Origin: Ionaspis alba
Taxonomy: Eukaryota
Assembly: GCA_964255285.1 (NCBI GenBank)
Contig: CAXUUL010000022.1
Span: 1-63,381 of the forward strand
DNA: 63,381 nucleotides
Direction: 5' to 3'
Shown here: positions 6,450 to 58,464 of the stretch, one piece after another
Layout: each line of letters starts with the position of its first letter
Position numbering within the stretch: the first letter of the stretch is position 1
The notes under the pieces: model-generated
What the model was told of the DNA's origin: nothing
Databases searched by the model: none
The model's input: the letters and a program-made list of their open reading frames with translations, nothing else
Translations under genes and position numbers: made by a program

Positions 6450-8483
6450 AAGGAAGACTTGATTTATTTCGAGTTCTCTGGAAGCGATAGGAGATAGGAA
6501 ACTTAAATCACTGGCTTGTATATCAAAAGCTCATTGATTCGAGCATTGATCGGACATATCAGAAGGCAAAGTAACAGTATACGGTGGTGACTCGAACAAC
6601 ACCGCATCTCGGACAAACATCATGAAGCAGTAATCAACGGTGATTACATTTCTGGATTCCTCGGCCCATATCCCTCGGTTAAAGATGAGTAAACAAGGCC
6701 ACCAGATAAAAGCCGACCATATGCCACCAACTGGACCACTTCAGATCAGCCTGGCTAGATTTAGCTTGGTGATCTGCATTGTCAATGTCCGGCATAACTG
6801 AACTCCCGTTCGAAAAGCTTATTCCAGGAATACAGAGGACATAGGGTTCCATTTGCCAGCTTGAACGCACCGAAACATGGAGAGAGATTACCCAACGATA
6901 ATGAGCAGTAAACCACGATCTACTTGCATGTGGTTCAGAACAAACTAGTCTTGTCAGCTCAGACTGAGGACGTGCAAGATGACAGGGAGCCGGTGCGCAA
7001 GGGTTCACGCTTGTTCAGTCAAGATGCCGAGTGTAATAGAGCAGGCAATGATGAATTGCAGCTGGCCAACTGGAGTCACGGGGAAGTCGGCATACGTTTC
7101 TCGGCCTTGTGTTCATGTTCATGGCTTTGGAAAGGTAACCTAAGAGCAAGGTCAATTACAGGCGGTAAAGACGCAACGATTACGGGCTAATACCGGCGTT
7201 TAGTATCTCCGATCCGGCGGCTATCGGCAAAGCATATTCTGACTGCGGTCGAACAATGTTCCGGGCAGCAGGGATAGAGAGTGATGACGGTATTTGTAAA
7301 AGTTGGCTATTGGGCCTGTATGGTACGTTGCATACATGCTGCACCTAGTGAACCTCATTGTTGCCTCTTCGTTTTTCGTCACGCAACATTAGCTCGCCGC
7401 TTGGAGCCGTATTACTCATTTCGGACGTAATGGATTGCCTACCTATTCCCTTTTTCTGCATCCAATGTGGCACAGATCAGAATCCGTGCCATATCAAGGT
7501 CGTAGGACCAACTCTAGGTAGGATATAAGTCGAAGTGATTGCAGCACGATATTGACCTGCTCATAGGCTTCTTCGCTTCGGTCGCTGCTGCTGTAAGGTC
7601 AACTCAATAGCTGGGGTATTAAATGAAGAAGTCCCCGGCATAGCTTTCTTAGTAGATTGGCTTATATGATGACAGATTATATGCTGGCCGAGTGCTCTTT
7701 TTTGTGGCTGTTGTGCCTCTGAATTGGGAAAAAAGTAAGGAACAGCAATACAAATGATAGAGACCAAGAAGCTAGAAACATGCTAACAAAGCTTGTGAAA
7801 TGAGTAGAATGCTAGGATTCCCAGTGGAAGTGAATGGATCGGTCAGCGATGCCATACCTTTCTGAAGTAAAGACGGGAGCTCGCATTAGAGAGAATGTAA
7901 GATACGGAGCCAATGATTGGGTCTCTACCATCAAATACTGGCTGTATGCACATGATCAGCAGGCTATCCTGGCGAATTGCAAACAATGGAGTCTTCTAGC
8001 TCTCCAATGCATACTTCTAGATGCTTGGTTGATACTTTTCGTGTATGACGGGGGAGTAGTGAGTGTTGTGGAATCTACTATATTCTGAAGCCTAAACGCG
8101 AGTCACCAAATCTTACTATCACCATCGAGATCTTGCATCCTCTACCTCCGCACAGCACGCTGAAACTGCGATTCAAATTCTGATGTATTGCTCCTTACGG
8201 GCTATCGTTGAGTCGTTGCTGCTGCAGAGCGGATCCTTTGTGCTGCAATGGTGTGGGTTGTGCCGGGTGCTGGCTCTCTTCGCCTGGTAGATCTCATATT
8301 CACACGTCTCACTTCACTCCAGTCTGCCTAACCAGCCACGCAAATTACTTCGACCCCTGCCTTTCCAACCACAGAGCTACAACTTCGTCCCACCCACATC
8401 TATGCACTTACAGCTTGACACATCTGTGCTATCCAACAAGCTTCGAGTGCTTCGATCCTTTGATGTATAGATCTCTGTACGAC

Positions 8484-10972
8484 ATGAGCCAAGACGAGAT
8501 GAATAAAAGCGGCTCGCGAGGTGGGTGTTGCGTTGTTCATACCAATCTACATGAATACTGACACTCTAAGCTCCTTATCCTCACTGGTACTTGCAACGGA
8601 TGTCGTTCGACCAGCAACACAACCTAGATATATCCACAGGTACAGCTCGGATCGGTAATGAGATCTAACTCCCTACTCTCACGTTACCTGACTAACCATG
8701 TTATAATCTAGCACCAAGCGTCCCGGTCCAAGAAGCCACCTACAGCATCATGCAGCGCATCGGTATGCCAGGGTCGTCTAACGGTTGTCCTCGTCCGGAC
8801 GTTTCTGCAGCAGTGACTCAGCCACGAGAGAACTTCGGGGCTAGTATCATGAACGCAACAAACCCTGTTGAGATCCAAGAAAAAGCAAAGGGAATGTTGA
8901 ATACCGTGTTCTACTTCGATGTGCTCAAGTACTCCGTCGGTTATGAACATGCCTTCGTGGAGAATCATAGTCTTACGAAGGGCGAACTTGACTATCTTTG
9001 CAAACTCAAGTCTGGCCCTGTTCGACCCAAGCCGAGGAATATCAACTTCACCTACATTGGAAGAACTAGCTCGAACCCGCGTACCGACTTTGCAACAATC
9101 TCCCACCAGGATGGTCTATCTGAGACTGACAATTACTTCGAGACTGACCTAACGAGTCAGTCCACTGACACCACTGCCGTAACAGAGCGCCAGCTTGAAG
9201 CTCACGTGATTCAAAGTCATGGTAGTCATCTCGCGCTCGAGCACTTCCCTCTTCCTACCACTGAGCCTGCAGAGCAGTCGGCTTCATACCGCAAAGACTC
9301 TGGTATCGTCATGGAATCAGATTTTGCAGAGGAAATGGGCAGGAAGTCACCTTTGGCGTCTGCTTCTTTCCACCAAGCGCACTTCCAAGCCGGTGCTGAT
9401 GGAGAGGGACATGCAGGTGATGGTGCTATGCCCATTGAAGACCCGCAGACCACACAGCCGGCCGTCTGCGAAATTCCAGGAACTGAAGCAGCACCACTCA
9501 CCAACAAGAACGGTTTCCTAACCGCAGACGGTGTGGTCCACCACTTCGGACCCGCCGCAGATACAAGATTCGTATATAGCTATGCCTACCATCTCGGTCA
9601 TAACGAAGGGTGGACGGACGGTCTCATCCATGGGTCGCCCTGTATGAGTTGTCCCGAAGCGGCACAATTCGACATCAACGTAGCAGAAACCGCGGTCTCA
9701 TCTGGGGTGCCGCACAGTCAGCTAAAACAGGAAAATCAATACCTCTCCATACCGTACCACGCACCCGCGACGACCTCGTTTGGCGTTTCACAGAATCAGT
9801 CAAACGCCGGAATGGGCCCTGCGAATAGTCAGATGTATGTTCCTAGTTCCGAGGAAGTATCCTTCGTCACAAATGATCCAGGAGCTGCCCATTGTGGTCT
9901 CTATGACTTCAACACCATAGTACCAAGGGAAAGCGATACGGAGAACGATGCTACGACCGCAACGCCAGGCCATATTCTGAATCGTCCGACGCCTTTCGTG
10001 CCATCGGGCAGTGCTTCTATAGCACCGCTGCGTACTATGGACTATGGAGTATCTGCTTCTGCCACTTCTTCATTAGAAGCTGCTTCCGTCGCGCCTTTGC
10101 ATATGATTGATCACGGCGGGACCGTATCTGGTTTACTGGAAGGCGATACAGTGATCAAGCCATACCTTCCTAGCCATTCCAAGCCCGCCGACCACCCGAA
10201 AAGTGATAGCAACGTGTTCAAGAACCCCAGGCCGCGGTGCGCTTCTTCGCGCTGTGCACACATTGCACCTCGTGTTCCCTCGCTTGAGGCCGAAGGAACT
10301 ATCGTGGTGGAAGCTCCTCGCTCTGGGGAGAAACGTAACACTAAGGAAGCTGTCACCAACCGTGGGCAAGAATTTGCAGGTGTCTCAGCAGAGTCGTCCC
10401 GACTTATTGATAATACAGCTACTGAGTCTGCCGAGAAGCTAGCGAAGACTAGGAGACGCCGTGTCGTGGCTGGAAAAACTCCACGGCTGTCTACTAGTAA
10501 TGCTGATCGAGTTTTCACCACTATGCCAGAACTCGACGCTGTCGACTCTGAGATCCTTCAGACCGTCGCGTTTCGACCCAGCATCGACAAAGCTCGAGCA
10601 GAAGGTGCGAGCGAGCCTCAGTCTTGCCTTGACAGAGCCGAGTACACTACCAAGGACGAAGCCAATCTTAGCGGTCAACCTCTGCCTGAGCCTGCCTCGC
10701 CTCTTACGCCCCGTAAGCGTCGTGCTCTCAACGAAATGGAGGGCCACCGCCCCAGCATCAATTCTGGGCATACGACACCTACGAAAGAGGCAAAAACTGC
10801 TTCGAAGTCTGGTCATGTGATATCGGTACCATATGACGACAGTATCAAGGTGCCGGTCCCTAAGCTTAGTGCTCCACCGAGGAAGAAGGTAAAGATGGCC
10901 GCTGCACGGAATGATGACAACCATCTTTGCGCTCCTGGAAGGCTTGTCCGTCGCTCGAAGCGTAACTCGTGA
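8484..10972 (+). CDS. Hypothetical (orphan-like) protein, about 790 aa, low complexity, basic NLS-like C-terminus
   Basis: 740-aa ORF extended upstream by two phase-1 introns (8521-8570, 8640-8711) with CTGAC/CTAAC branch sites that keep the frame; alternative ATG at 8463; no domain recognised. Confidence 0.7.
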
Positions 10973-11421
10973 AACAGCCTCCGAACTGTCTGTGCTCTGG
11001 TGAGAACAACTCTGAGAGGCTTTACAAAGATCCGTATGTTTTGTTCATAGATGCTTTTGAACATTGAAGTCTGCCATGATGTTCTTTTACAGTGGGCAGG
11101 GGATTTGAGATGCTTTGTATGTTGTGGTGAATTGGTAACGAAGACTCAGCAGGGTCAGTTGTCACTAGAACTTCGAGTGAAGGTAAAGCTCTTTGTACAA
11201 TGATGGTTCGTGCTCTCTCGTGCATTTTAGTTTGTTTGACAGACCAGCTCAGTTCACACTCTCTAGAATATGTTGTTTGCACGATAGGTTATTTTAGTTG
11301 TGTTAGATGTTGCCATGAACTTTGATTTGTGACTCGACGGTAGCCTCTCTTATCGATACATTGACTAAGATACACTTTTCGGACTCTTCCCTCAAGCATC
11401 GAGAGAACTCACCCTACCATT

Positions 11422-11823
11422 CTACTCAACCTGCACATCTTTCGAGGTGTCGAGCTCTTCATGGCGGAGGACCTCGATGGGCTTTTCGAGGAGCGGGACT
11501 ACATAGGGATCGAATGTTTTCCAGTACGGATTCTCGAGGTGGTATTTCTGGCTCTACATGATTCTTAGACGAATTGCAGGATGCAGAGAAGCTTCATATC
11601 CCCGGCTCGATGGCAAAGGATATCAATCACTTACCCCTTCATTTTCGAATCTCTCCACAATAGTGAATTTCCTTGGATCATGCACATTTTGCATGACCTC
11701 CCATGCCACTGTTTCCTTGTCCTTGCGGTAGATGCGCGCAGCTTCGATGAGCTTGTTCTTGACCTTCAAGATGCAGGCTTCGTCGTCTTTGCAGTAGAGG
11801 TGGCAGACGAGTGTGTAGACCAT
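11422..11823 (-). CDS. Small ABM (antibiotic biosynthesis monooxygenase / dimeric alpha-beta barrel) domain protein
   Basis: MVYTLVCHLY...YRKDKET..W.VMQ..HDPRKFTIVERFE, intron 11554-11634, then SQKYHLENPYWKTFDPYV...VE*. Confidence 0.8.
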
Positions 11824-45462: not shown

Positions 45463-47313
45463 CTACCAGAACACAATCCCCGCCCCTGCCACCATCGCAA
45501 CCGTGACATATGCCCCGAGCGTCAGCAACCCAAAATCAAACTTGGGTACGGTGACCGCGCCCGCAATCCCACTGGTCGACGAAGCTGCGGCTCCACCTCC
45601 ACTGCCACTCCCGATCGCGTTCGTATTCGTCGGCTGCGACGTCACGGACCCCGTGCCCGCGGAACCGGCCTGACTGACCAGGGGCGCACAATCTCCTGAT
45701 GGGGTCGAAGGCGTCTGCGTCGTGCCTTGGCCGTTGAAATCGCAGGCATTGGTGTTAGCACTGTTGGTCATTTTCTGCTGTTGGTAGTATGCATCCATGG
45801 CCCACGCCAACCTCTCCGTAGCATTGCAGACCGAGTACGCGCCGTACGTCCCTGTCGTGCCGTTGGGAGTGATGCCGTCGCAGAGGTCCTTGGTGAGGCC
45901 GCAGGCGGTGTCGAAGATGTCCTGGTAGTTTTTTGTGGCCAGGTCCGGTTTCGGGACGCAGGTTAGGTTCTGTATCATGCAGCCGCAGAGCTGCTGGTTC
46001 GGGGTTGGAGGGAGCTTGGTAGCGGCTGCCCAGCTGCTGTCTGTTGTCGGGCAGCTGCGGGCGGCGGTGTTGGAAACTTGGTACGAGGCCATGTTTACTC
46101 CGCTAGGAGTCACGGAGGCGATTTGGGAGGAGAGCGCCGTGAAGTCGGGAAGCTTGCTAACTGTTGTGCCGTCGAGGGTTACCAGGCCTAGTTTGGGAGG
46201 TTAGTTGGGTTGCGGAGAAGGGGGCCAGAGCAAGATGTACCGAACTTGTTTTGTTCTTGGAAGTATTCGTATACGATACCGCCAGACCAAACTGAGGTCA
46301 TGTTCTCGCCATAGAGGGCGAGTGTCTCGTCGAACCTTCGTGGTTCGGGGTCGTTGCAGCCGTACTCGGCGAAGAATGCAGGGACAGAGTAGTTCTTATA
46401 TTCGGATGTTCTGTCGGCATACCCGGATGTCTGATAATCGGATTTTCCGCACCAGGAGTAGATATTATATCCGAAAAAGTCGACACTGCTCTCTGACGGC
46501 CCGCAATTGATGTAGTTGGCCAGTGGGGCTCGAATAGTGGCATCGTCATCCGCGGCATATCCAACACCAATCGTACGATACCCTCTGCGTTTGATGTATG
46601 CCTTCATATCCCGCGCGGCAGCCTTGACAAACGGGATGGCCTCAACATTGGTGGCGTTGTTCGATACCTCGTTTCCTGCAAAGAAGCCGAGCACGTTGTT
46701 GTAGGGAGCCAGAGTATCGATGACGCTGGCGTAGCGAGCATAGAGCTCAGCATCCCATGAGGGCTTGTCTCGATTGATGGAGATGTTGGGGGCAGACAAG
46801 TCGGCGATGAGATAGATGCCGGCATCTTGAAGCATTTGCATGCATTGCTTGTGGTCTTTGGTGGGATCAATGGCGTAGACACGGATGGTGTTTGTTTGGA
46901 GCTGTTGAAGTAATGGTATGTCGCGTTTGCAGCCGTCGACATCGGTCAATGGGTCGACGTAGTTGGTGTTTGCGCTCGAGGTCCCGTTGCCTCCAACATT
47001 CTCTGTAGATCATGAGCTTCTGGTGAGATGCTTGAGGCGTTGGAGCAACGAACGCTGGTACGCAATGCCTTTGATGAAGCTGCGTCAAAGCTGTCAGCAA
47101 TTGTAAGATACCGGAAGTATCATGATGGCTCACAACTCAGTTCCGTTCGTCTTGTAGAAGAACTTGGAGCCCTAGGAAGAATACGAAGGTCAGCCGGATT
47201 CAATGCTGTCTTCTGTGATGGTGCTGACAGACCTTGATGACTATAGGGTCAACGTCTGCGAGGACTGAGGCAGCCAGCGAAGCTGCTGCGACGACGACGG
47301 ATGTGAATCGCAT
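45463..47313 (-). CDS. GPI-anchored 1,3-beta-glucanosyltransferase (GH72 + X8/CBM43; Gas1/Gel-type)
   Basis: Signal peptide [57 protein letters not shown], Cys-rich X8 domain, Ser/Gly spacer and hydrophobic GPI signal. Confidence 0.95.
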
Positions 47314-47885: not shown

Positions 47886-50080
47886 CTCGAGTCCAACGGC
47901 GGATCGTGTGGCTTACAGTAGTATGCTCCCTCGGGATCATGCAAACATCCGGCGTCACTGGTAGATACCAGATCCCCCGAACAAGTCAGTCTGAAACCAG
48001 AACAGTGGTGGCTCATCACTGACAATAATGGCAAGAAGGTAGTGTACTGTAGGAGGCAAAAGCATCCAGACTTCCTCTATGTCCGGAGCACAGGCCTAGG
48101 ACAGAACTTTCCACAGCTCCCTCGGACGTCAAACCATCATTGTTCTATTAATAAGTATGACCTTGTGCATCATTTCGAACTACAGTGCAACGAATATGGT
48201 ACTACTATGCATATACAGTCCTACTACTACTAGATACACATCCGGGAGAAGATTTGCAGGATTCTTTCCTCCATCCTTGGCCGGTACCCCTTTTCCATAT
48301 CTGCCGCCACTTTGGGGGTGTGGCCCCTGTGGGTCGTTGATGGGGGATCCCTATGATTGGCGCTCCCACCGGAAATTAGCACGCAAAGTCGCCACACCGA
48401 TCAAGCAATGCCCATTTCTTTCCTCCACCCAACGGTCCCTGCCTATTTTGATTCTGGTCTCGAGGTAGAATCACTATCCCGACAAGTTGCACTTCATCAG
48501 AGACAATCAGATGCGTGAAGAATACATCCATACTTCACCTTTCACAGGATCATCAGCAAGCTCAATGGTAGCGGATCAGCGACTGCTATTTTTGAATCCA
48601 CGGATTTGCGAGAGTATGGACGATCTTTCTTCTCTGACTGTAAAACCATTGGCCCCCGGTGCATGGCATGACAGAAGAGGAGGCCGGGCGGCAGATTCAT
48701 GCACAGGTCGCCGTTGACGTCGTCCCTGTTGTAGCTGCTGGGATGGAGGGATGCCATCCCTGGCTCCCGCCCAGGGCGTGAAATGGGCGGATCAGCCATT
48801 CTGTTCATCCGTCAAAAATTACAAGTGCATTACGAGTACCTGTTGCCCGCCAGATTCTGGTATCGTTTTGTCTAAGGCGGTGTTCTGATGCGACAGGATT
48901 TTGAGGTGGATGAGGATCAGTAGACCAATAACGATAGTAGTGGGTGTCTCTGCCATACAGTGGCTCGGCGTATCGCAGTATTGCCTGCAAAGGACTTGCC
49001 AGTAGTGGATGGCACCGTAGTTGCGATGAATGTTGTCTCGATCAACTCTCCACCAGCATGATCAATTGAAAATGGGTGAGACTGATCGTAATTAGTTTTG
49101 ATAGCAGAAATTGTTGCTGGGATACTACTACAAGACTACTCCGTAGTCTGTATTGTACATATGCACCAGCTGGGAAGTACTGCTCAATTATTACATTGGG
49201 AGGAAGGACCTTTTCTTCCCGAAATACGCAAGCTAAACACCAAAATACACTCTGATCGTGGTTTGGGCGAATCAGCGTGAAGCAACTCCATTCCCAAACA
49301 ATCCTGGCTAAAGGCGGTGGTACCGGAAGGGTCAGAGGTACCTGCCTTTGCCTATCCTGCTCGCTTCCTCCCCTATCCGATCCATTATTTCCTCCCTTTC
49401 CCCATCTGCTCTTACTTCGTTCAATCTCTCACCCCATCTGCTTCTTACATCTCCTCCTGCTCCTCCGCCATCTCTTTCGTTGGTAGCAACGAGGTCATCC
49501 ACTCGCTGAGAATTGTGTCTGGATTTTGCAGCACGCGTGGAACTGTGGTGTGGGAATTACCTTTGACCAAGGCACGGCAGGAATAATAGCAAGTTTCTCG
49601 TAGTTCGGAGCAACCGCCACGCAATCGTTATTTCTCCTTCGTTCCTCCTCCACCTTCTTTTCGTGTGCAACAACAATCACTTCGAGTCAAATCTCTCCGC
49701 CGTCGACTTTGACTGTTTATCGCGACACCAGATCATCCGATTCACATACCATTGGGATCTGCTCCGGTCGGGAATCAACTGGGCTTCGCGACGTAACCGC
49801 CTCACGATATACACGTCGCGTGTGCACATATTTTCTCGTTCAGATACTGGAGGCGTTCCCAATCCTGTCTTCCGCACTTAATCTTTCATTGCTGAGACTG
49901 GAAAAGCTCATCGATGGGCAACCACTAAGGTCAGTTCAACCATTCGTTCTCCGCTCGACACCTGGCGACCGACGACCGCCGTTTTACCAACTTGCTTTGG
50001 AATTCATTTCGATCGCAAATCTACGAATTTGATTCTCATATACTACAGTTTCATAGCAATCTCGATTCGTTACCGCAGTC

Positions 50081-53000
50081 ATGTCAGGTCATCCTCAAGG
50101 AGGCCATTATGACGATGGCTACTCCCATCAGGCACATGGAGCCGATTCCTACTACCAAGATGACCACAACCAAAGCTATTACGACAACAACGGTCAGTAT
50201 GCTCAACACCAGGATTATCATCAGGGACAGCACGGCGGAGATGGATATTATGACGAAGCGTGAGTGATTCTTCGGCACTTCTGGTGTCATGATGTCCCTG
50301 CTCTGACCAAATTTCAGTGGCTACTACAACGCCGATGCCAATAACCCATACCAGCAAGACGGAGGGTATTACGATGGTCACCAACAAGGCTACCAGGATG
50401 ACTATGGCGAGCAGTATCATGATCAAGGCCCTGCTGCTGGTCAGCATGGAGGCTATGCACAGAACGGCAATGGGTAGGCACTATGTGTATTGTACAAACC
50501 GCACTCATGGCTGACAAGCATAGCGCAAGGTCCAGGCGTCGAGGCCATGACTCCGAGGAAGATTCTGAGACCTTCAGTGATTTTACAATGAGATCTGATA
50601 TGGCGAGAGCTGCGGACATGGATTACTATGGACGTGGCGATGAGCGATACAACAGCTACAACGAAGGCCAGAACGGTGGGCGGGGATATCGACCACCATC
50701 TTCCCAGATATCGTATGGTGGAAATCGGTCGTCTGGAGCCTCTACACCTGTCTACGGTATGGAGTATGGCAATGCTCTTCCGGCTGGCCAGCGTTCTCGA
50801 GAACCTTATCCAGCTTGGACATCAGATGCTCAGATTCCACTTTCTAAAGAAGAGGTCGAAGATATCTTCTTGGATCTTACTGCAAAATTTGGCTTCCAAC
50901 GCGACAGCATGAGAAATATGTACGACCACTTCATGACTTTGCTGGATTCTCGAGCTTCCCGCATGACTCCAAACCAAGCTCTTCTGTCATTGCACGCGGA
51001 TTACATTGGAGGAGATAATGCCAACTACCGACGATGGTATTTTGCAGCTCATCTAGACTTGGATGACGCAGTTGGCTTCGCCAACATGAAGCTCGGAAAA
51101 GCAAACAGAAGAACCCGCAAGGCTCGCCGAGCAGCCAAGAAGAAGGCCGATCAGGACCCACAGAACGAGGCTCAGACTCTCGAGGGCTTGGAAGGCGATA
51201 ACAGTCTGGAAGCGGCCGAGTATCGCTGGAAATCTCGCATGAACCGTATGTCACAGCACGACCGTGTCCGGCAGATCGCTCTCTACCTGCTCTGCTGGGG
51301 TGAGGCGAATCAGGTCCGTTTCATGCCTGAGTGCCTCTGTTTCATCTTCAAGTGCGCGCTTGATTATCTGAATTCCCCCGAAGGCCAAAATCGTGTCGAA
51401 CCTGTCGAAGAATTCACATATCTGAATCAAGTGATTACACCATTGTACCAGTACTTCCGAGACCAAGGGTTCGAAATCTTCGAGGGTAAATACGTTCGCC
51501 GCGAAAGAGACCACAGCAGCGTCATCGGTTACGACGACATGAACCAACTCTTCTGGTACCCCGAGGGCATCGAGCGTATTGTTATGGAGGACAAAACAAG
51601 AATGGTTGATGTGGCTCCGGGCCAAAGGTATCACAAGCTGAAAGACATCGCCTGGAAGAAGGTGTTCTTTAAGACGTACAAGGAATCACGGTCTTGGTTC
51701 CACATGCTAGTCAACTTCAACCGCATTTGGGTGCTCCATCTTACCATGTTCTGGTTCTACACAGCATACAACTCCGCCCCCATATACACCAAGGACTACC
51801 AGTCTCAGTATGACAATCCACCCACCGCTGCTGCACGGTGGTCCGCCGTCGCTCTTGGTGGCACCGTGGCCTGCTTACTCATGATATTTGCGACTTTGGC
51901 GGAGTGGGCCTATGTTCCTCGTCGGTGGGCTGGCGCTCAACATCTGACGAAACGACTTCTCTTCCTCCTGGTTATCTTTGTCATCAATGTCGGCCCCAGT
52001 GTTTACGTCTTTGGCATCAAGGGCGGTCAAGGACAGATTGGTCAGATCCTTGGAATTGTTCAATTCTTCGTCGCTCTCGCAACGTTTCTTTTCTTCGCCA
52101 TCATGCCTCTAGGTGGGCTTTTCGGTAGTTACTTGACGAAAAATTCGCGCCAGTACGTTGCTAGTCAGACCTTCACTGCTAGCTGGCCACGCCTAAAGGG
52201 TAACGACATGTGGATGTCTTATGGACTATGGTTTCTTGTTTTCCTCGCCAAATTTGCCGAATCATATTTCTTCCTCACTCTCCCCTTCAAGGATCCAATC
52301 CGCATTCTCTCCTCGATGCAAATCAGGAACTGCATTGGCGATGCAATCCTAAAGGAGTATCTGTGTCATTACCAACCGAAAATCTTGCTTGGAGTAATGT
52401 TCTTCACGGATCTGTGTCTCTTCTTCCTCGATACTTATCTCTGGTACATCATCCTGAACACAGTATTCTCTGTTTCTCGCTCGTTCTACCTTGGTGTGTC
52501 CATCTGGACTCCATGGAGGAATATCTTCTCTCGTTTACCCAAACGTATCTACTCGAAGGTCCTTGCAACCACCGACATGGAGATCAAATACAAGCCCAAG
52601 GTCCTAATCTCCCAAATATGGAACGCCATCGTCATCTCGATGTACCGAGAACATCTTCTTGCCATCGATCATGTGCAGAAACTCCTCTACCACCAGGTAC
52701 CATCAGAGCAAGAAGGCAAGAGGACTCTACGCGCGCCGACCTTTTTCGTGTCTCAGGAAGATCATTCGTTCAAGACGGAGTTTTTCCCCGTCCAAAGCGA
52801 AGCGGAGCGACGTATCTCTTTTTTCGCCCAATCGCTTTCGACTCCGCTTCCTGAGCCCCTTCCTGTCGACAACATGCCAACCTTCACCGTTCTGATTCCT
52901 CATTACAGTGAAAAGATTCTTTTGTCTTTGCGAGAGATCATTCGGGAGGATGAACCGTACTCGCGTGTCACCCTTTTGGAATACCTCAAGCAACTTCACC

Positions 53001-56000
53001 CTCATGAGTGGGACTGCTTCGTTAAGGACACTAAGATTCTGGCTGATGAGACCTCTCAATTCAATGGCGATTACGAAAAGACCGAAAAGGATACTGCGAA
53101 GAGTAAGATCGATGATCTTCCGTTCTACTGCATTGGTTTCAAGTCAGCTGCTCCTGAGTATACACTGCGTACCCGAATCTGGGCCTCTCTACGATCTCAG
53201 ACTCTTTATCGAACGATTTCCGGTTTCATGAATTACAGCCGTGCTATCAAACTACTGTACCGAGTCGAAAACCCCGAAGTGGTGCAGATGTTCGGCGGGA
53301 ACTCTGACAAGCTTGAACGTGAACTTGAGCGTATGGCTAGACGGAAGTTCAAGATTGTCGTCTCGATGCAGCGCTACGCGAAATTCAACAAGGAGGAGAG
53401 AGAAAATACGGAGTTTTTGCTTCGTGCCTACCCTGACCTTCAGATTGCTTACCTTGACGAAGAGCCTCCGCTACAGGAAGGTGACGAACCTCGATTGTAT
53501 TCGGCTTTGATCGACGGACACTCCGAACTCATGGAAAACAATATGCGCCGACCTAAGTTCCGTGTTCAACTCTCTGGAAATCCAATTCTTGGTGACGGCA
53601 AATCTGACAATCAAAACCACTCCCTTATCTTCTACCGGGGAGAGTACATTCAGCTTATCGACGCTAACCAAGACAATTATCTCGAGGAATGTCTCAAGAT
53701 CCGTAGCGTTCTAGCAGAATTTGAGGAAATGACAACCGACAATGTCTCGCCGTATACTCCCGGTCTGCCTCCCGCACAAATGAACCCTGTGGCTATTCTT
53801 GGTGCTCGTGAATACATCTTTTCCGAGAATATTGGTATCCTCGGAGATGTCGCAGCCGGAAAGGAACAAACGTTCGGTACACTGTTTGCTAGGACACTCG
53901 CACAGATTGGTGGCAAGCTTCATTACGGTCATCCTGATTTCCTCAACGGCATTTTCATGACTACCCGTGGTGGTGTCTCCAAGGCTCAGAAGGGTTTACA
54001 TCTCAACGAAGATATCTACGCCGGTATGAATGCGCTCCTCCGTGGAGGACGTATAAAGCACTGCGAATACTACCAATGTGGAAAGGGTCGTGATCTTGGC
54101 TTTGGCTCCATTCTCAACTTTACAACCAAGATCGGCACTGGCATGGGCGAGCAAATGCTGTCCCGCGAATACTACTACCTCGGAACACAGCTTCCTCTCG
54201 ATCGCTTCCTGTCCTTCTACTATGCTCATCCCGGATTCCACATCAACAATTTGATTATTATCCTAACGGTGCAACTGTTCATGCTCGCTTTGATCAACTT
54301 GGGAGCTCTCGCCAACCAAAGCATTATCTGCGACTACAATCGCGATTCTCCCATCACAGATCCTTTGAAACCATATGGATGTCAAAACCTCACTCCGATC
54401 CAAGACTGGGTGTTCCGATGCGTTGTCTCAATTGCAGTCGTCTTCTTCATCTCTTTCTTGCCGCTTATCGTTCAGGAGCTCACGGAGCGAGGATTCTGGC
54501 GTGCTGCGACTCGCCTGGCCAAGCACTTTGCGTCTTTCTCGCCACTCTTCGAGGTTTTCGTCTGTCAGATCTACGCCAACTCACTGTCTCAGGATCTATC
54601 TTTCGGTGGTGCTCGATACATTGGCACTGGTCGTGGGTTTGCGACTGCCAGAATTCCTTTCGGTGTCTTGTATTCCCGATTTGCTAGTCCTGCGATCTAC
54701 CTCGGCGCTCGTCTATTGATGATGTTACTCTTCGCAACATTGACGATATGGGGAGTTTGGCTCCTGTACTTCTGGGCTTCTCTCCTCGCGTTCATTGTCT
54801 GTCCATTCCTCTTCAACCCGCATCAGTTTTCGTGGAACGATTTCTTCATCGACTACCGCGACTTCCTCAGGTGGCTGTCTCGAGGCAATTCTCGATCGCA
54901 TGCATCGTCCTGGATTGCGTTCTGTCGATTGTCACGAACTCGAATCACTGGTTACAAGCGCAAGACCATTGGAGAGCCATCAGCGAAGATGTCGGGCGAC
55001 GTACCGCGCGCCAAATTCACCAATCTCTTCTTCGCTGAAATCATCGGGCCCCTCATTCTGGTAGCATTGACTGTCATTCCGTACCTATACATCAACGCAC
55101 AGGCTGGTGTCATCAAGGCGAACAACCCTGGCAAAGATCTTTCACCAACATCATCCTTGATCAGAGTGGCTGCCGTCGCGTTCGGGCCCATTGCAATCAA
55201 CGCACTGATCCTACTGGTGTTCTTTGCGATGGCTTGCTGTATGGGTCCTGTCTTGAGCATGTGCTGCAAGAAATTCGGTAGTGTTCTGGCTGCCATTGCT
55301 CACGGTATCGCGGTCGTCATGCTCCTCGCCTTCTTCGAGGTCATGTTCTTCCTTGAAGGATTCGACTTTGCAAAAGCACTCCTCGGGATGATCGCAGTGG
55401 TTGCCCTACAACGATTCATCTTCAAAGTGATCATCGCACTTGCGCTCACCCGTGAGTTCAAGACAGATTCTGCTAACATTGCTTGGTGGACCGGGAAATG
55501 GTATAACATGGGTTGGCATTCGATGTCTCAACCGGGTCGTGAATTCCTTTGCAAGATCACCGAGCTCGGAATGTTCGCCGGGGACTTCATCCTTGGACAT
55601 TTCATCATGTTCCTCATGCTACCGGTGCTTGTCATACCATATGTCGACAAGTTTCATTCAGTCATGCTCTTCTGGCTTCGACCAAGGTACGTTCTTCCTC
55701 AATGCTTTGATGATATCTATCACTGACATAATCGCAGTCGTCAAATCAGACCGCCAATCTACTCTCTGAAGCAGTCGAAGCTACGCAAACGACGTGTCAT
55801 TCGTTTCGCCATACTCTACTTCGTCATGCTTGTTGTCTTCCTTGCTCTTGTCGTTGGACCTGTTGTGGCGGGCAAATACGTTCCCCTCAAGAAGATTCCC
55901 ATGAGTCTCCTACAGCCCGTTGGATACAACAACAATGATACCTTCTCCACCGTTACCGGCGGTGCAATCAACCCCGGTCTTGGTGCGAAAGGTCCAGGAG

Positions 56001-56023
56001 TACCGCCGGCACCAACGGCGTAA
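50081..56023 (+). CDS. FKS1: 1,3-beta-glucan synthase catalytic subunit (GT48)
   Basis: Tyr/Gln-rich N-terminus, [75 protein letters not shown]; introns about 50260-50317, 50474-50523, 55687-55737. Confidence 0.99.
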
Positions 56024-56652
56024 GCAACAAGTTGAGCAGTAGAGAAAAAAATAACGACACGAGGGGACGTCGCATATATGTACAGCAACGCCAATTACCT
56101 CAGAAACCAGGCCAGCAACTTTCTTTCCGAAAGTTGTCTAATGACCCAATTGTCTGACTGGCCTGATATATTGTATCTCGTCTCTTTTGTGCGACAGGCT
56201 TCATTGGTGGCGTAAGGGATAGAGGGCAGCCATCACGCATGTTTGTTTCTCTGGCGGTGGCTGAGGGACGTCTTGTACGGCTCCTGGGTTGTGTGCTGAA
56301 ATGGATTAATTCTGGCGGTACTCTTCTGAGTTTATTACATTAGCAGTTAGTTCTTTTATTTCCTTTGGCTGGGCAACGTGCAAAAAAAGCCTGCAGCACT
56401 AGTCGATGTACATTATAGATGGGACAAATAGTGCAATTGCAGTCATAATCATGAATTTCATCTCAAGGCACGTGTGTAGTGAAAGTGATTTGGAAGTCGT
56501 ATCCTTGGTTTGTGGTTTCCATAAAATGGTCCTGAATTTAGTACGGAGTTGAACCTCCGAGTGTCCCGCAAGATCCCTACTCGCCTCAAGTTCCTATATC
56601 GGATTTCCAATTCCTTTGTAGAAACGCCCGACTGCATGTACCGCATGGCATA

Positions 56653-58464
56653 ATGGACGCGAACGACCTCCATGGCTGGCTCCTCAAGTTCCTAGACGAA
56701 CTCTCCGACGTCTTTCAAAAATTACCTGGCTCCTCAATCTTTCTTCGGTACATCAAATCGAGCTACCAGAATGACCCTGTCCGATCCGGCATCGAGCTCT
56801 TCTTGTGCCTCTTTGCGGTACGGTACCTGCTTGCGCCGGCCTACTCGACACAGAAGAAGAGCTATGTGAGACTTACTGATGAGGTGTGTATGGGTCTACT
56901 CTGCCTTGGATGGAATTCTACGTAGCTGACAACCGTCTTTCCAGGAAATCGACGAGCTCGTTGAAGACTGGACGCCTGAACCGCTCGTCACGCCACAAAC
57001 CGCCTTCGAAGAAGCAGAAAACGAGAAGAGGCCCGTCATCGTAGGGTGCGAAGCCCCATATCCCTTTCTTCCTCCAGCAAAACCGTCTGGACTGACCTGA
57101 CCCTGCCGTGCTAGACCCACGGGCCCCAAAGTGAAGCTCGCCAACGGCCGCACCGTCACAAATCTCGCGTCCTACAACTTCTACAACTTCGTCGGCAACG
57201 AAACCCTCAAAGAAAAAGCCATTCAAACGCTGCGGACCTACGGCGTTGGTCCTTGCGGTCCTCCCGGCTTCTACGGCACTCAAGACGTGCATGTGAAGAC
57301 CGAAGCGGACATCGCGGCTTTCCTCGGGGCGCCGGCTTGTATCGTGTATGCGCAGGCGTTCTCGACAATCTCGAGTGTGATTCCGGCGTTTAGTAAGAGG
57401 GGCGATGTCATTGTGGCGGACAAGGCGGTGAATTATGCGATCAGGAAGGGGATTCAGATCTCCAGGAGTACGGTCCGGTGGTACGAGCATAATGATGCGG
57501 AGGATATGCGGAGGGTGTTGGAGAGGGTTGTCAAGGAGCAGGCGAAAAAGCCTTTGACGAGACGATTCATCGTTACGGAAGGCCTCTTTGAGGATGTAGG
57601 TGATATGGTCGATTTGCCTAAAATTGTACGTCTACTGCCCCAGTTCATCCACATACACTCCCGATGAATTCCTGGTTGCTAACCGCTTTCCAAAGATCGA
57701 GCTCAAACACCGCTACAAATTCCGCCTCATCCTCGACGAAACCTGGTCCATCGGTGTCCTCGGCCGTCACGGGCGTGGCCTCACCGAGCACCAAAACGTC
57801 GACCCTCTGAGCGTCGACATGATTGTTGGCAGTCTAGCTGGCCCCCTCTGCGCCGGTGGCGGCTTCTGCGCCGGTTCCGACGAAATCGTAGAACATCAGC
57901 GTATCAGCGCCTCGGCCTACACCTACTCGGCAGCGCTGCCGGCCATGTTGGCGACGACGGCGAGTGAAACTCTGGCGATTTTGCAGAGGGAGCCTGAGTT
58001 GCTTGTTGGGTTAAGGGAGAATGTAAAGGCGCTGTGGGCACAGTTGGATCCGAGGAGTGAGTGGGTGAGGGGCCTTAGTGATCTAGGGAATCCGGTTGTG
58101 GTTATGGTGCTTAAGGAGGAGGTGGTGAGGGGGAAGAGATTGGGGGTTGAGGAGCAAGAGGTACTGTTGCAGGATGTGGTTGATGAGGTAAGCCTATCGC
58201 TCTTTCCAATTATGAGGATGATATAGGAGGGTGGTTTTCGAGCTGTGAAGGCTGATGACTCTGGGGATTTAGTGCATGACGAATGGCGTCTTGATTACCA
58301 GACTCAAGAGTATGCCGAGGGGCAACCCGAAGGAGGTCGGATGGGAACTGCAGCCGGCGCTTAAGATCTGCGTCACTACGGGTCTGACGAAGAAGGAGAT
58401 CGAGAGGGCGGGAATTACGATTCGGCATGCTATTACTAAAGTGGTGAATCGGAGGAAGTCGTAG
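56653..58464 (+). CDS. LCB1: Serine palmitoyltransferase subunit 1
   Basis: YIKSSYQNDPVRS, EIDELVEDWTPEPL, YGVGPCGPPGFYGTQDVH, LILDETWS.GVLG, GGFCAG....EHQRI; four introns. Confidence 0.96.

Follow-up and report, generated by a model that had tools for sequence, protein, structure and literature searches.

The closest described counterparts of the allele reported here are S643P of Saccharomyces cerevisiae, S645P of Candida albicans, S678P of Aspergillus fumigatus and S639P of C. auris, among others, which share with it the residue, the motif and the amino acid introduced; published work is cited throughout from excerpts of the papers named. In yeast Fks1, S643P raises the caspofungin IC50 from 0.26 to 379 μg/ml; S643 is hydrogen-bonded to R1357, and P643 clashes with the drug (PMC13249079). 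The S643P structure is available as 9ZTC (PMC13249079). In A. fumigatus, S678P raises the MEC of three echinocandins from 0.25 to above 16 μg/ml (PMC2812698). In yeast, almost every substitution of residue 643 gives resistance at little cost (PMC13147539), and mutations of S645 are tied to resistance in at least 10 species and reduce Vmax (FungAMR preprint). Susceptibility of the organism is not always in line with the hot spots, Cryptococcus being an example (PMC13147539). In the echinocandin producer Pezicula radicicola, an FKS1 gene adjoins the biosynthetic cluster and serves target-based self-resistance (PMC10296638).

Here we describe an FKS1 gene in a 63-kb window (the whole stretch of DNA analysed, 63,381 nucleotides) in which this best-known acquired echinocandin-resistance substitution is found, probably as the natural wild-type state, in an environmental fungus, unlike the alleles above, which either emerged in the presence of drug or were introduced into susceptible species by engineering. 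The fungus has no known drug exposure, and its resistance would follow from findings in other species. The allele would resemble P660A of the C. parapsilosis complex and the F-to-Y change of Fusarium, Neurospora and Magnaporthe, which underlie an intrinsically reduced susceptibility, as a wild-type trait of a species that alters hot spot 1 where substitutions lower echinocandin sensitivity. Unlike these two, which affect positions 9 and 1, respectively, it affects the Ser at position 5, to which the list of intrinsic hot-spot polymorphisms would thereby be extended. Like the extra FKS1 of P. radicicola, which protects against echinocandins in nature, the gene encodes a fungal glucan synthase, in this case one predicted to be insensitive; the P. 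radicicola gene is described as lying beside a biosynthetic cluster, whereas the window gene lies in a conserved GH72/FKS1/aminotransferase locus. The direct clinical weight of the finding is small, since the fungus is not a pathogen.

The FKS1 gene and its hot spots

The gene is predicted from sequence to encode Fks1, the catalytic subunit of the GT48 β-1,3-glucan synthase (Table 1). Its exon model was obtained by tblastn with Coccidioides and Xylographa Fks1 as queries against the window, and the introns were placed from GT..AG sites and homology. Hot spot 1 is in frame within a 1747-aa ORF (50483-55726), the long exon-3 ORF P0001. This ORF, in which some 14 residues at either end stem from introns, was the query of all protein searches. 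P0001 matches the Pfam family Glucan_synthase (PF02364) over profile positions 1-818 of 819 with 1388 bits, and it also matches the FKS1 N-terminal domains FKS1_dom1 and FKS1_dom2 (PF14288 and PF23605). The solved S. cerevisiae Fks1 aligns with query residues 56-1739 (E = 0, 2656-2660 bits); yeast Fks1 can be aligned residue by residue at hot spots 1 and 3, and by alignment column at hot spot 2.

Table 1. Positions of the FKS1 gene, its hot spots and its neighbours in the window
Feature	Positions	Strand	Remarks
GH72 glucanosyltransferase with X8 domain (Gel/Gas type), upstream neighbour	45463..47009	-	Glyco_hydro_72 7e-114, X8 1.5e-24 (Pfam)
FKS1 (predicted GT48 beta-1,3-glucan synthase catalytic subunit)	50081..56023	+	intact, four predicted exons, ~1927 aa
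FKS1 predicted exons	50081-50259, 50318-50473, 50524-55686, 55738-56023	+	tblastn and splice-site positions
Hot spot 1, FLTLPFKDP	52271..52297	+	predicted full-length residues 695-703; opposite hot spot 1 of yeast Fks1 in the alignment
Pro codon CCC, fifth of hot spot 1	52283..52285	+	equivalent to yeast S643, C. albicans S645, A. fumigatus S678
Conserved LDTYLW of the hot spot 3 region	52427..52444	+	P0001 residue 649
Hot spot 2, DWVFRCVV, Arg kept	54404..54427	+	P0001 residue 1308
Class I/II aminotransferase, downstream neighbour	57600..58226	+	Aminotran_1_2 7.2e-10 (Pfam); part of a larger gene, the ORF being the size of one exon

The initial annotation had read hot spot 1 as FLTLPFKDP with a CCC codon, equated its Pro with that of S643P and S645P, and stated that susceptible Fks1 has Ser at this position. 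Translation of the plus strand gives exactly this motif, and the Pro sits at the residue homologous to yeast S643, where the aligned S643P mutant chains 7yuy_F and 9ztc_A likewise have Pro. In this comparison 7yuy_F scores 110.4 bits and 9ztc_A 110.3 bits, versus 106.6 bits for the wild type. The wild-type A. fumigatus motif is FLTLSFKDP, and the window motif is the A. fumigatus hot spot with S678P. Ser is the usual residue at position 5 of hot spot 1, occurring in 199 of 211 aligned Fks proteins, and the hot-spot 2 Arg and the Trp of LDTYLW, both described as retained, are indeed in place.

Pro at the Ser position and the Ostropomycetidae clade

Pro is rare at this site, being found in 3 of the 211 aligned database Fks proteins; more distant Fks proteins, beyond the best 120 of 1809 matches in one search, may also have it. 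None of 80 metagenome loci has Pro. A degenerate pattern of the Pro type, in which the hot spot is preceded by ES[Y/F]x and followed by Ile and which is hence blind to other forms, gave no match in JGI metagenome contigs, and narrow-region protein searches around the hot spots of P0001 and P0034 brought up no further Pro-bearing protein. A natural hot spot starting with FLTLP is absent from the excerpted natural-homologue table of PMC13147539. In the literature text searched, neither a 27-residue protein string nor FLTLPFRDP occurs, and a literature search on lichen glucan synthase and echinocandins found nothing on lichen Fks1 hot spots among the papers listed.

All three Pro proteins fall into one clade of 19 sequences, of which those with a name belong to Xylographa and Agyrium (Ostropomycetidae), so the window fungus is probably lichen-forming or lichen-associated. 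Alignment of hot spot 1 across these relatives, a comparison proposed in the initial annotation, returned Thr, Ile or independent Pro, together with His at hot spot 2: within the clade the hot-spot 1 Ser has changed four times (to Pro twice, to Thr and to Ile) and the hot-spot 2 Arg has changed to His three times. By parsimony counts, which are rough because they rest on a FastTree topology, the Ser column changed 4 times in the 19 rows versus once in the other 101, the Arg column 3 times versus none, and all other columns 1809 versus 8505 times. Fisher's test of 7:1 versus 1809:8505 gives an odds ratio of 33 (p = 3.5e-5), a post hoc value, the clade and the key columns having been picked after the data were seen. 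A single origin of Pro in the clade was rejected by an AU test, likewise post hoc, in which the three Pro rows were placed as one clade (lnL difference 228.5, p = 1.3e-26). Branch lengths of the clade are ordinary overall, and the terminal branch of the window FKS1 is 0.033 versus a median of 0.039, in keeping with an intact gene. The closest relative, the sister P0002 with 95% identity to P0001, has Thr at position 5, which keeps the hydroxyl, so the Pro of the window gene is recent and seen in a single lineage; P0003 has Ile.

We propose that the window carries a natural, wild-type housekeeping FKS1 whose Pro renders it echinocandin-insensitive by homology to S643P, and that this Pro belongs to a lineage-wide pattern in which the clade has altered the Ser/Arg pair repeatedly; we regard this reading as probable. 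Whatever the cause of the changes, the clade sequences are natural material for testing the cost and the context dependence of Ser/Arg alleles.

As to that cause, one tentative suggestion is that the Ostropomycetidae, fungi of the lichen type, rebuilt the pair again and again under a natural, undescribed glucan-synthase inhibitor present in lichen communities. If the changes were selected, they would suggest that such inhibitors occur in these communities; these lineages would then harbour 'clinical' resistance alleles as a reservoir in nature and would point to where new glucan-synthase inhibitors could be found. It is likewise conceivable, though we hold it doubtful, that the constraint on the Ser/Arg pair was relaxed in slow-growing lichen-type fungi and that the residues drifted almost neutrally, with no inhibitor selecting and with insensitivity as a possible by-product. 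The yeast deep mutational scan, which in the excerpted text of PMC13147539 finds little or no fitness cost for most substitutions at position 643, indicates that Pro could be nearly neutral and not adaptive. The clade variants are also diverse (Pro, Thr and Ile at the Ser site, and Lys, Ser and Glu at other hot-spot positions) and do not repeat one solution, and no producer or inhibitor for the lichen habitat came up in the analysis. Against drift, the retention of Ser in nearly all aligned proteins spans many classes, a sign that its loss carries a real cost in nature, and excerpts of the FungAMR preprint give a lowered Vmax for S645 mutations. Moreover, the branches are of ordinary length, yet the changes are concentrated, as judged by the post hoc odds ratio above, at two residues that are bonded to one another and give the drug site its shape.

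Predicted response of the window enzyme to echinocandins

The window enzyme is strongly predicted to be echinocandin-insensitive, the effect of Pro being extrapolated to its sequence background. With Pro, the Ser hydroxyl and its hydrogen bond to the hot-spot 2 Arg would be lost. Pro would also stiffen the backbone by which the following Lys/Arg and Asp are positioned to contact the drug, and it would clash with the echinocandin itself. An enzyme so altered would still make glucan, but its sensitivity to echinocandin-type lipopeptides would be greatly lowered.

An enzyme in which the surrounding sequence offsets the Pro and sensitivity is kept appears improbable. The measured effects of hot-spot changes come from yeasts and Aspergillus and not from Lecanoromycetes, and the mismatch between susceptibility and hot spots in Cryptococcus, as excerpted from PMC13147539, shows that such a case may be entertained. 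On the other hand, the excerpted literature gives the same substitution as a cause of resistance in many distant species, and the restriction of the backbone and the direct clash described there depend little on context; the rest of the window motif, moreover, is that of the A. fumigatus hot spot.

Genomic neighbourhood and the Pro codon

The gene lies between a GH72 glucanosyltransferase gene, which contains an intron as judged from its two ORFs, and an aminotransferase gene. This arrangement recurs in other fungi. Of the related metagenome loci with enough flank, 33 of 37 have GH72 upstream on the opposite strand, 33 of 43 have the aminotransferase downstream on the same strand, and 21 of 30 have both neighbours. 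In three public gene models, from Aspergillus, Penicillium and Phaeosphaeriaceae, FKS1 is even fused to PF00155. The window has 104 ORFs that are 120 aa or longer. A Pfam scan of 36 of them, including every ORF over 700 aa, yielded housekeeping families only, with no NRPS/PKS or cluster-type domain; among these ORFs no NRPS is found in the 50 kb upstream or the 7 kb downstream of FKS1. Run X1 has no second high-depth contig (at least 85% identity) on the gene and only fragments at depth 2-3.3. The conserved neighbourhood points to the housekeeping orthologue, and the window gene is best assigned, on synteny, as that orthologue of an uncultured Lecanoromycete. Both the adjoining GH72 gene with no NRPS cluster in view and the status of a housekeeping copy, not a self-resistance duplicate, had been put forward in the initial annotation, and the scan and the recurring gene order uphold them. 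A cluster-linked duplicate was ruled out by the synteny and by the lack of an NRPS among the ORFs scanned in the window.

These data also make it highly improbable that the fungus itself produces a glucan-synthase inhibitor, whether an echinocandin-like lipopeptide or a different compound, and is protected through its target. The initial annotation had raised self-protection, or competition with lipopeptide producers, as a possible background to an insensitive enzyme; both are conjectural. Such self-resistance has a precedent in the cluster-linked FKS1 of P. radicicola (excerpts of PMC10296638), and the pneumocandin producer Glarea lozoyensis has Ala at position 1 of hot spot 1 (ALTLSFRDP), where its sister row, Amylocarpus, has Phe. 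In the window, by contrast, the gene occupies the conserved syntenic locus and not a cluster, and the scanned ORFs are free of NRPS/PKS domains. The hot spot is unremarkable in the Coleophoma species that the set includes, which indicates that producers need not change it.

The Pro allele itself is real. A Logan contig of 34,402 bases with a mean word depth of 123 covers positions 50000-56500 with no differing letter and no gap; it comes from another assembler and is thus an independent assembly, though perhaps of the sample from which the window derives. In this one sample, Pro is the consensus residue at depth 123. Run X2, a second sample of the same study at a depth of about 3, contains identical pieces of the gene, those displayed lying outside position 52283, and run X3 contains only fragments from relatives. 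None of the three runs (X1-X3) lists a differing letter at 52283 among its Logan contigs, which as contigs hide minor alleles. A TCC misread as CCC, or a minor allele, would be a one-base difference inside a pyrimidine-rich stretch and the evidence consists of contigs, not raw reads, but the separately assembled depth-123 contig, identical over 6.5 kb, rules out an assembly error for practical purposes and leaves this explanation with a negligible likelihood. The relatives P0002 and P0003 also lack Ser, with Thr and Ile, respectively, which marks variation at this codon as a property of the lineage.

The FKS1 gene and its locus

The FKS1 gene of the window is a typical Fks1 / GT48 family member. 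The translation of its exon-3 ORF (P0001) matches profile positions 1-818 of the 819 in Pfam Glucan_synthase at 1388 bits, matches FKS1_dom1 and FKS1_dom2 as well, and is matched over residues 56-1739 by solved S. cerevisiae Fks1 chains (E = 0). The exon model rests on homology to Coccidioides and Xylographa Fks1 with GT..AG sites, with inferred introns. The initial annotation had read a Pro codon in hot spot 1 and had taken the hot spot 2 Arg and the Trp of LDTYLW (hot spot 3 region) to be retained. All three readings are borne out: TTC CTC ACT CTC CCC TTC AAG GAT CCA translates in frame to FLTLPFKDP, with the Pro at about residue 699 of the predicted full-length protein.

Features of the window discussed in the text
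Feature	Window position	Strand	Basis or remark
FKS1 gene, four predicted exons, about 1927 aa	50081-50259, 50318-50473, 50524-55686, 55738-56023	+	homology and GT..AG sites
ORF of P0001, 1747 aa	50483-55726		contains FLTLPFKDP in frame
Hot spot 1, FLTLPFKDP	52271-52297	+	translation
Pro codon CCC	52283-52285		translation
LDTYLW	52427-52444	+	motif located in P0001
Hot spot 2, DWVFRCVV, Arg present	54404-54427	+	motif located in P0001
ORF, 758 aa	8696-10972	+	no Pfam family at 1e-5
ORF, 649 aa	14515-16464	-	no Pfam family at 1e-5
ORF, 446 aa	60585-61925	+	no Pfam family at 1e-5

Three public sequencing runs, all from one study, contain the FKS1 stretch. X1 yields a 34,402-base Logan contig (mean word depth 123) that is identical to the window throughout 50000-56500, without a differing letter or a gap; X1 is possibly the source sample of the window itself and is taken not as an independent sample but as a second assembly at high depth, which makes a single-base consensus error behind the Pro codon very unlikely. 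X2, a different sample at a depth of about 3, has identical FKS1 pieces with no differing letter listed at 52283; the pieces displayed do not include the one spanning that base, so X2 is not counted as confirming it. Contigs conceal minor alleles, and CCC is a contig consensus rather than evidence of population fixation. X1 also holds fragments on FKS1 (window 50315-53272) at depth 2-3.3 and <90% identity, which belong to other, low-abundance fungi of that sample. Over the gene, X1 shows no other FKS contig that combines high depth with at least 85% identity.

The GH72-adjacent gene had been judged a housekeeping copy rather than a self-resistance duplicate, with no NRPS cluster in view, and the neighbourhood, which is common to related loci, upholds both points. 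The window has 104 ORFs of at least 120 aa; Pfam was run on 36 of them, among which are all those >700 aa. No NRPS or PKS domain occurs in these 36, and those with a family are ordinary genes only (RRM protein, HAT-repeat splicing factor, MFS transporter, Gaa1, aconitase, Mis14, Sec14-type protein, class II aminoacyl-tRNA synthetase, BAR/PH protein, Rpn9, SprT-like protein, GH72 plus X8, and aminotransferase). Among 80 related FKS1 loci from metagenome contigs, GH72 lies upstream on the opposite strand in 33 of the 37 with at least 4.5 kb of room, the aminotransferase lies downstream on the same strand in 33 of the 43 with at least 2.5 kb, and both flank FKS1 in 21 of 30 with enough flank. FKS1-aminotransferase fusion models exist in Aspergillus pseudonomiae, Penicillium brevicompactum and one Phaeosphaeriaceae species (P0167, P0173 and P0181; 2244-2484 aa, FKS1 plus PF00155); they are probably mis-merged neighbours and were used as synteny evidence. 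The gene order is kept, and the window gene therefore occupies the ancestral FKS1 locus. The 446-aa ORF without a Pfam family has a conserved counterpart on the downstream side of the aminotransferase in several related loci.

Predicted effect of the proline

The 100-residue stretch around hot spot 1 aligns unambiguously to yeast Fks1 residues 603-701, and the window Pro lines up with the Pro that chains 7yuy_F and 9ztc_A carry (hot spot FLVLPLRDP); these two chains score 110.4 and 110.3 bits versus 106.6 for wild-type chains; 9ZTC is the S643P structure (PMC13249079). Since the A. fumigatus wild-type hot spot is FLTLSFKDP (PMC13147539, Supplementary Table 3), the window motif is the A. fumigatus hot spot with S678P. 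In yeast, S643 forms a side-chain hydrogen bond with R1357 in hot spot 2; Pro at 643 limits the backbone mobility by which R645 and D646 are positioned, and it clashes with the drug, the caspofungin IC50 of purified Fks1 is 379 ug/ml for S643P versus 0.26 for wild type, and R1357H is likewise resistant in spot assays (PMC13249079). A yeast deep mutational scan found that nearly all changes at 639, 643, 646 and 647 confer anidulafungin and caspofungin resistance at little or no fitness cost (PMC13147539). Mutations at S645 are linked to resistance in at least 10 species, and a lower Vmax is reported for them (FungAMR preprint). From these published effects the window protein is strongly predicted to be echinocandin-insensitive: its wild-type Pro would act through the mechanism worked out for yeast S643P and confer insensitivity to echinocandin-type lipopeptides. 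The allele is of the same class as known hot-spot 1 Ser-to-Pro variants and, as a natural hot-spot polymorphism, is like C. parapsilosis P660A and the Fusarium F-to-Y change.

Rarity and recurrence of hot-spot changes

Hot spot 1 was aligned across relatives, as the initial annotation had advised, using 211 Fks proteins pooled from three protein searches (the best 120 of 1809 matches; the best 120 of 122 matches from 126 candidates; 15 from 16). Among the 211 listed, the Ser column holds Ser in 199, Thr in 7, Pro in 3, Ile in 1 and Asn in 1, the Pro bearers being P0001, P0034 (FLTLPIRDS) and P0068 (FLTLPLRDS). The 80 metagenome loci have Ser in 78, Ala in 1 and Thr in 1, and a degenerate DNA pattern scan of the metagenome contigs gave no match to a Pro-type hot spot. 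In the portions of the PMC13147539 supplement available, all 113 of 113 'FLTLP' occurrences are in the reported-mutant table and none in the natural-homologue table; four Pro-type motif strings do not occur in the literature text searched. Within the searches made, a natural wild-type Pro at the hot-spot 1 Ser is new, as is the repeated alteration of the Ser / Arg pair within a single lichen-type clade.

In a FastTree placement of 120 proteins (the best 120 of 1809), P0002 is the sister of P0001 (support 100, 95% identity), within a clade of 19 rows in which only Xylographa pallens and Agyrium rufum are named; both belong to the Lecanoromycetes, subclass Ostropomycetidae. The best-supported reading is that the window gene is the housekeeping FKS1 of an Ostropomycetidae-type fungus. 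His at the hot-spot 2 Arg occurs in 5 of the 211 proteins listed, 5/5 of them inside this clade. Three states of resistance type come together in P0034 and P0068, the sisters of Agyrium rufum: Pro-5, Ser for Pro-9 and hot-spot 2 His.

Hot-spot states of Fks proteins in the 19-row clade
Protein	Hot spot 1	Hot spot 2 Arg
P0002	FLTLTFKEP	kept
P0003	FLTLIIRDP	His
P0004	YLTLSIRDP	His
P0031	FLTLSIRDP	His
P0034, P0068	Pro at position 5, Ser at position 9	His
P0099 (Agyrium)	FLTLSVSKP	kept
P0013	FLTKSIKDP	kept

Fitch counts gave 4 changes in the clade versus 1 in the other 101 rows at the Ser column, 3 versus 0 at the Arg column, and 1809 versus 8505 at all other well-filled columns (Fisher's test, 7:1 versus 1809:8505, odds ratio 33, p = 3.5e-5); the clade and columns were picked after the data had been seen, and the parsimony counts are rough, from one topology whose rows represent 90% identity clusters. 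A quick IQ-TREE tree of 28 rows agrees in its groupings, and the AU test excludes a single clade made of the three Pro rows (lnL difference 228.5, p = 1.3e-26), so Pro arose at least twice. The clade shows ordinary branch lengths, and hence no decay of the protein as a whole. The natural Pro and the recurrent changes of this clade make a genuine and neat natural experiment.

Origin of the changes and other natural variants

The Ser / Arg changes may have been selected by some natural inhibitor, a reading favoured by repeated change concentrated at two residues that shape the drug site and are hydrogen-bonded together. Nearly neutral drift in slow-growing fungi is a serious rival, as such changes are cheap in yeast and the replacements are varied. 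Producer self-resistance, with a precedent in Pezicula according to a review (PMC10296638), has no support in this window. As for an inhibitor that might have selected the changes, antifungal fernane-type triterpenoids are known from lichens (PMC11371599) and are a lead only, because that paper gives no evidence that they inhibit glucan synthase.

Other unusual natural hot spots were seen. Six metagenome loci (L006, L008, L009, L010, L011 and L013) carry the multi-site variant ALALSFRDS (Ala-1, Ala-3, Ser-9; near locus positions 6973-11585) and show GH72, FKS1 and the aminotransferase in their usual arrangement. The pneumocandin producer Glarea lozoyensis (P0040) has ALTLSFRDP, with Ala at position 1, where its sister row Amylocarpus (P0101) has Phe; nearly all position-1 substitutions are resistant in yeast (PMC13147539). 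In the Coleophoma rows the hot spot is of the ordinary form. Among the proteins and loci P0063, P0075 / L031, L069, P0126, P0198 and P0204, FLTRSFRDS, ALTRSFVDT, YLTKSVREP, FLTLTLKDS (Malbranchea cinnamomea), FLTLNIRDS and FLVRTFKDP occur.
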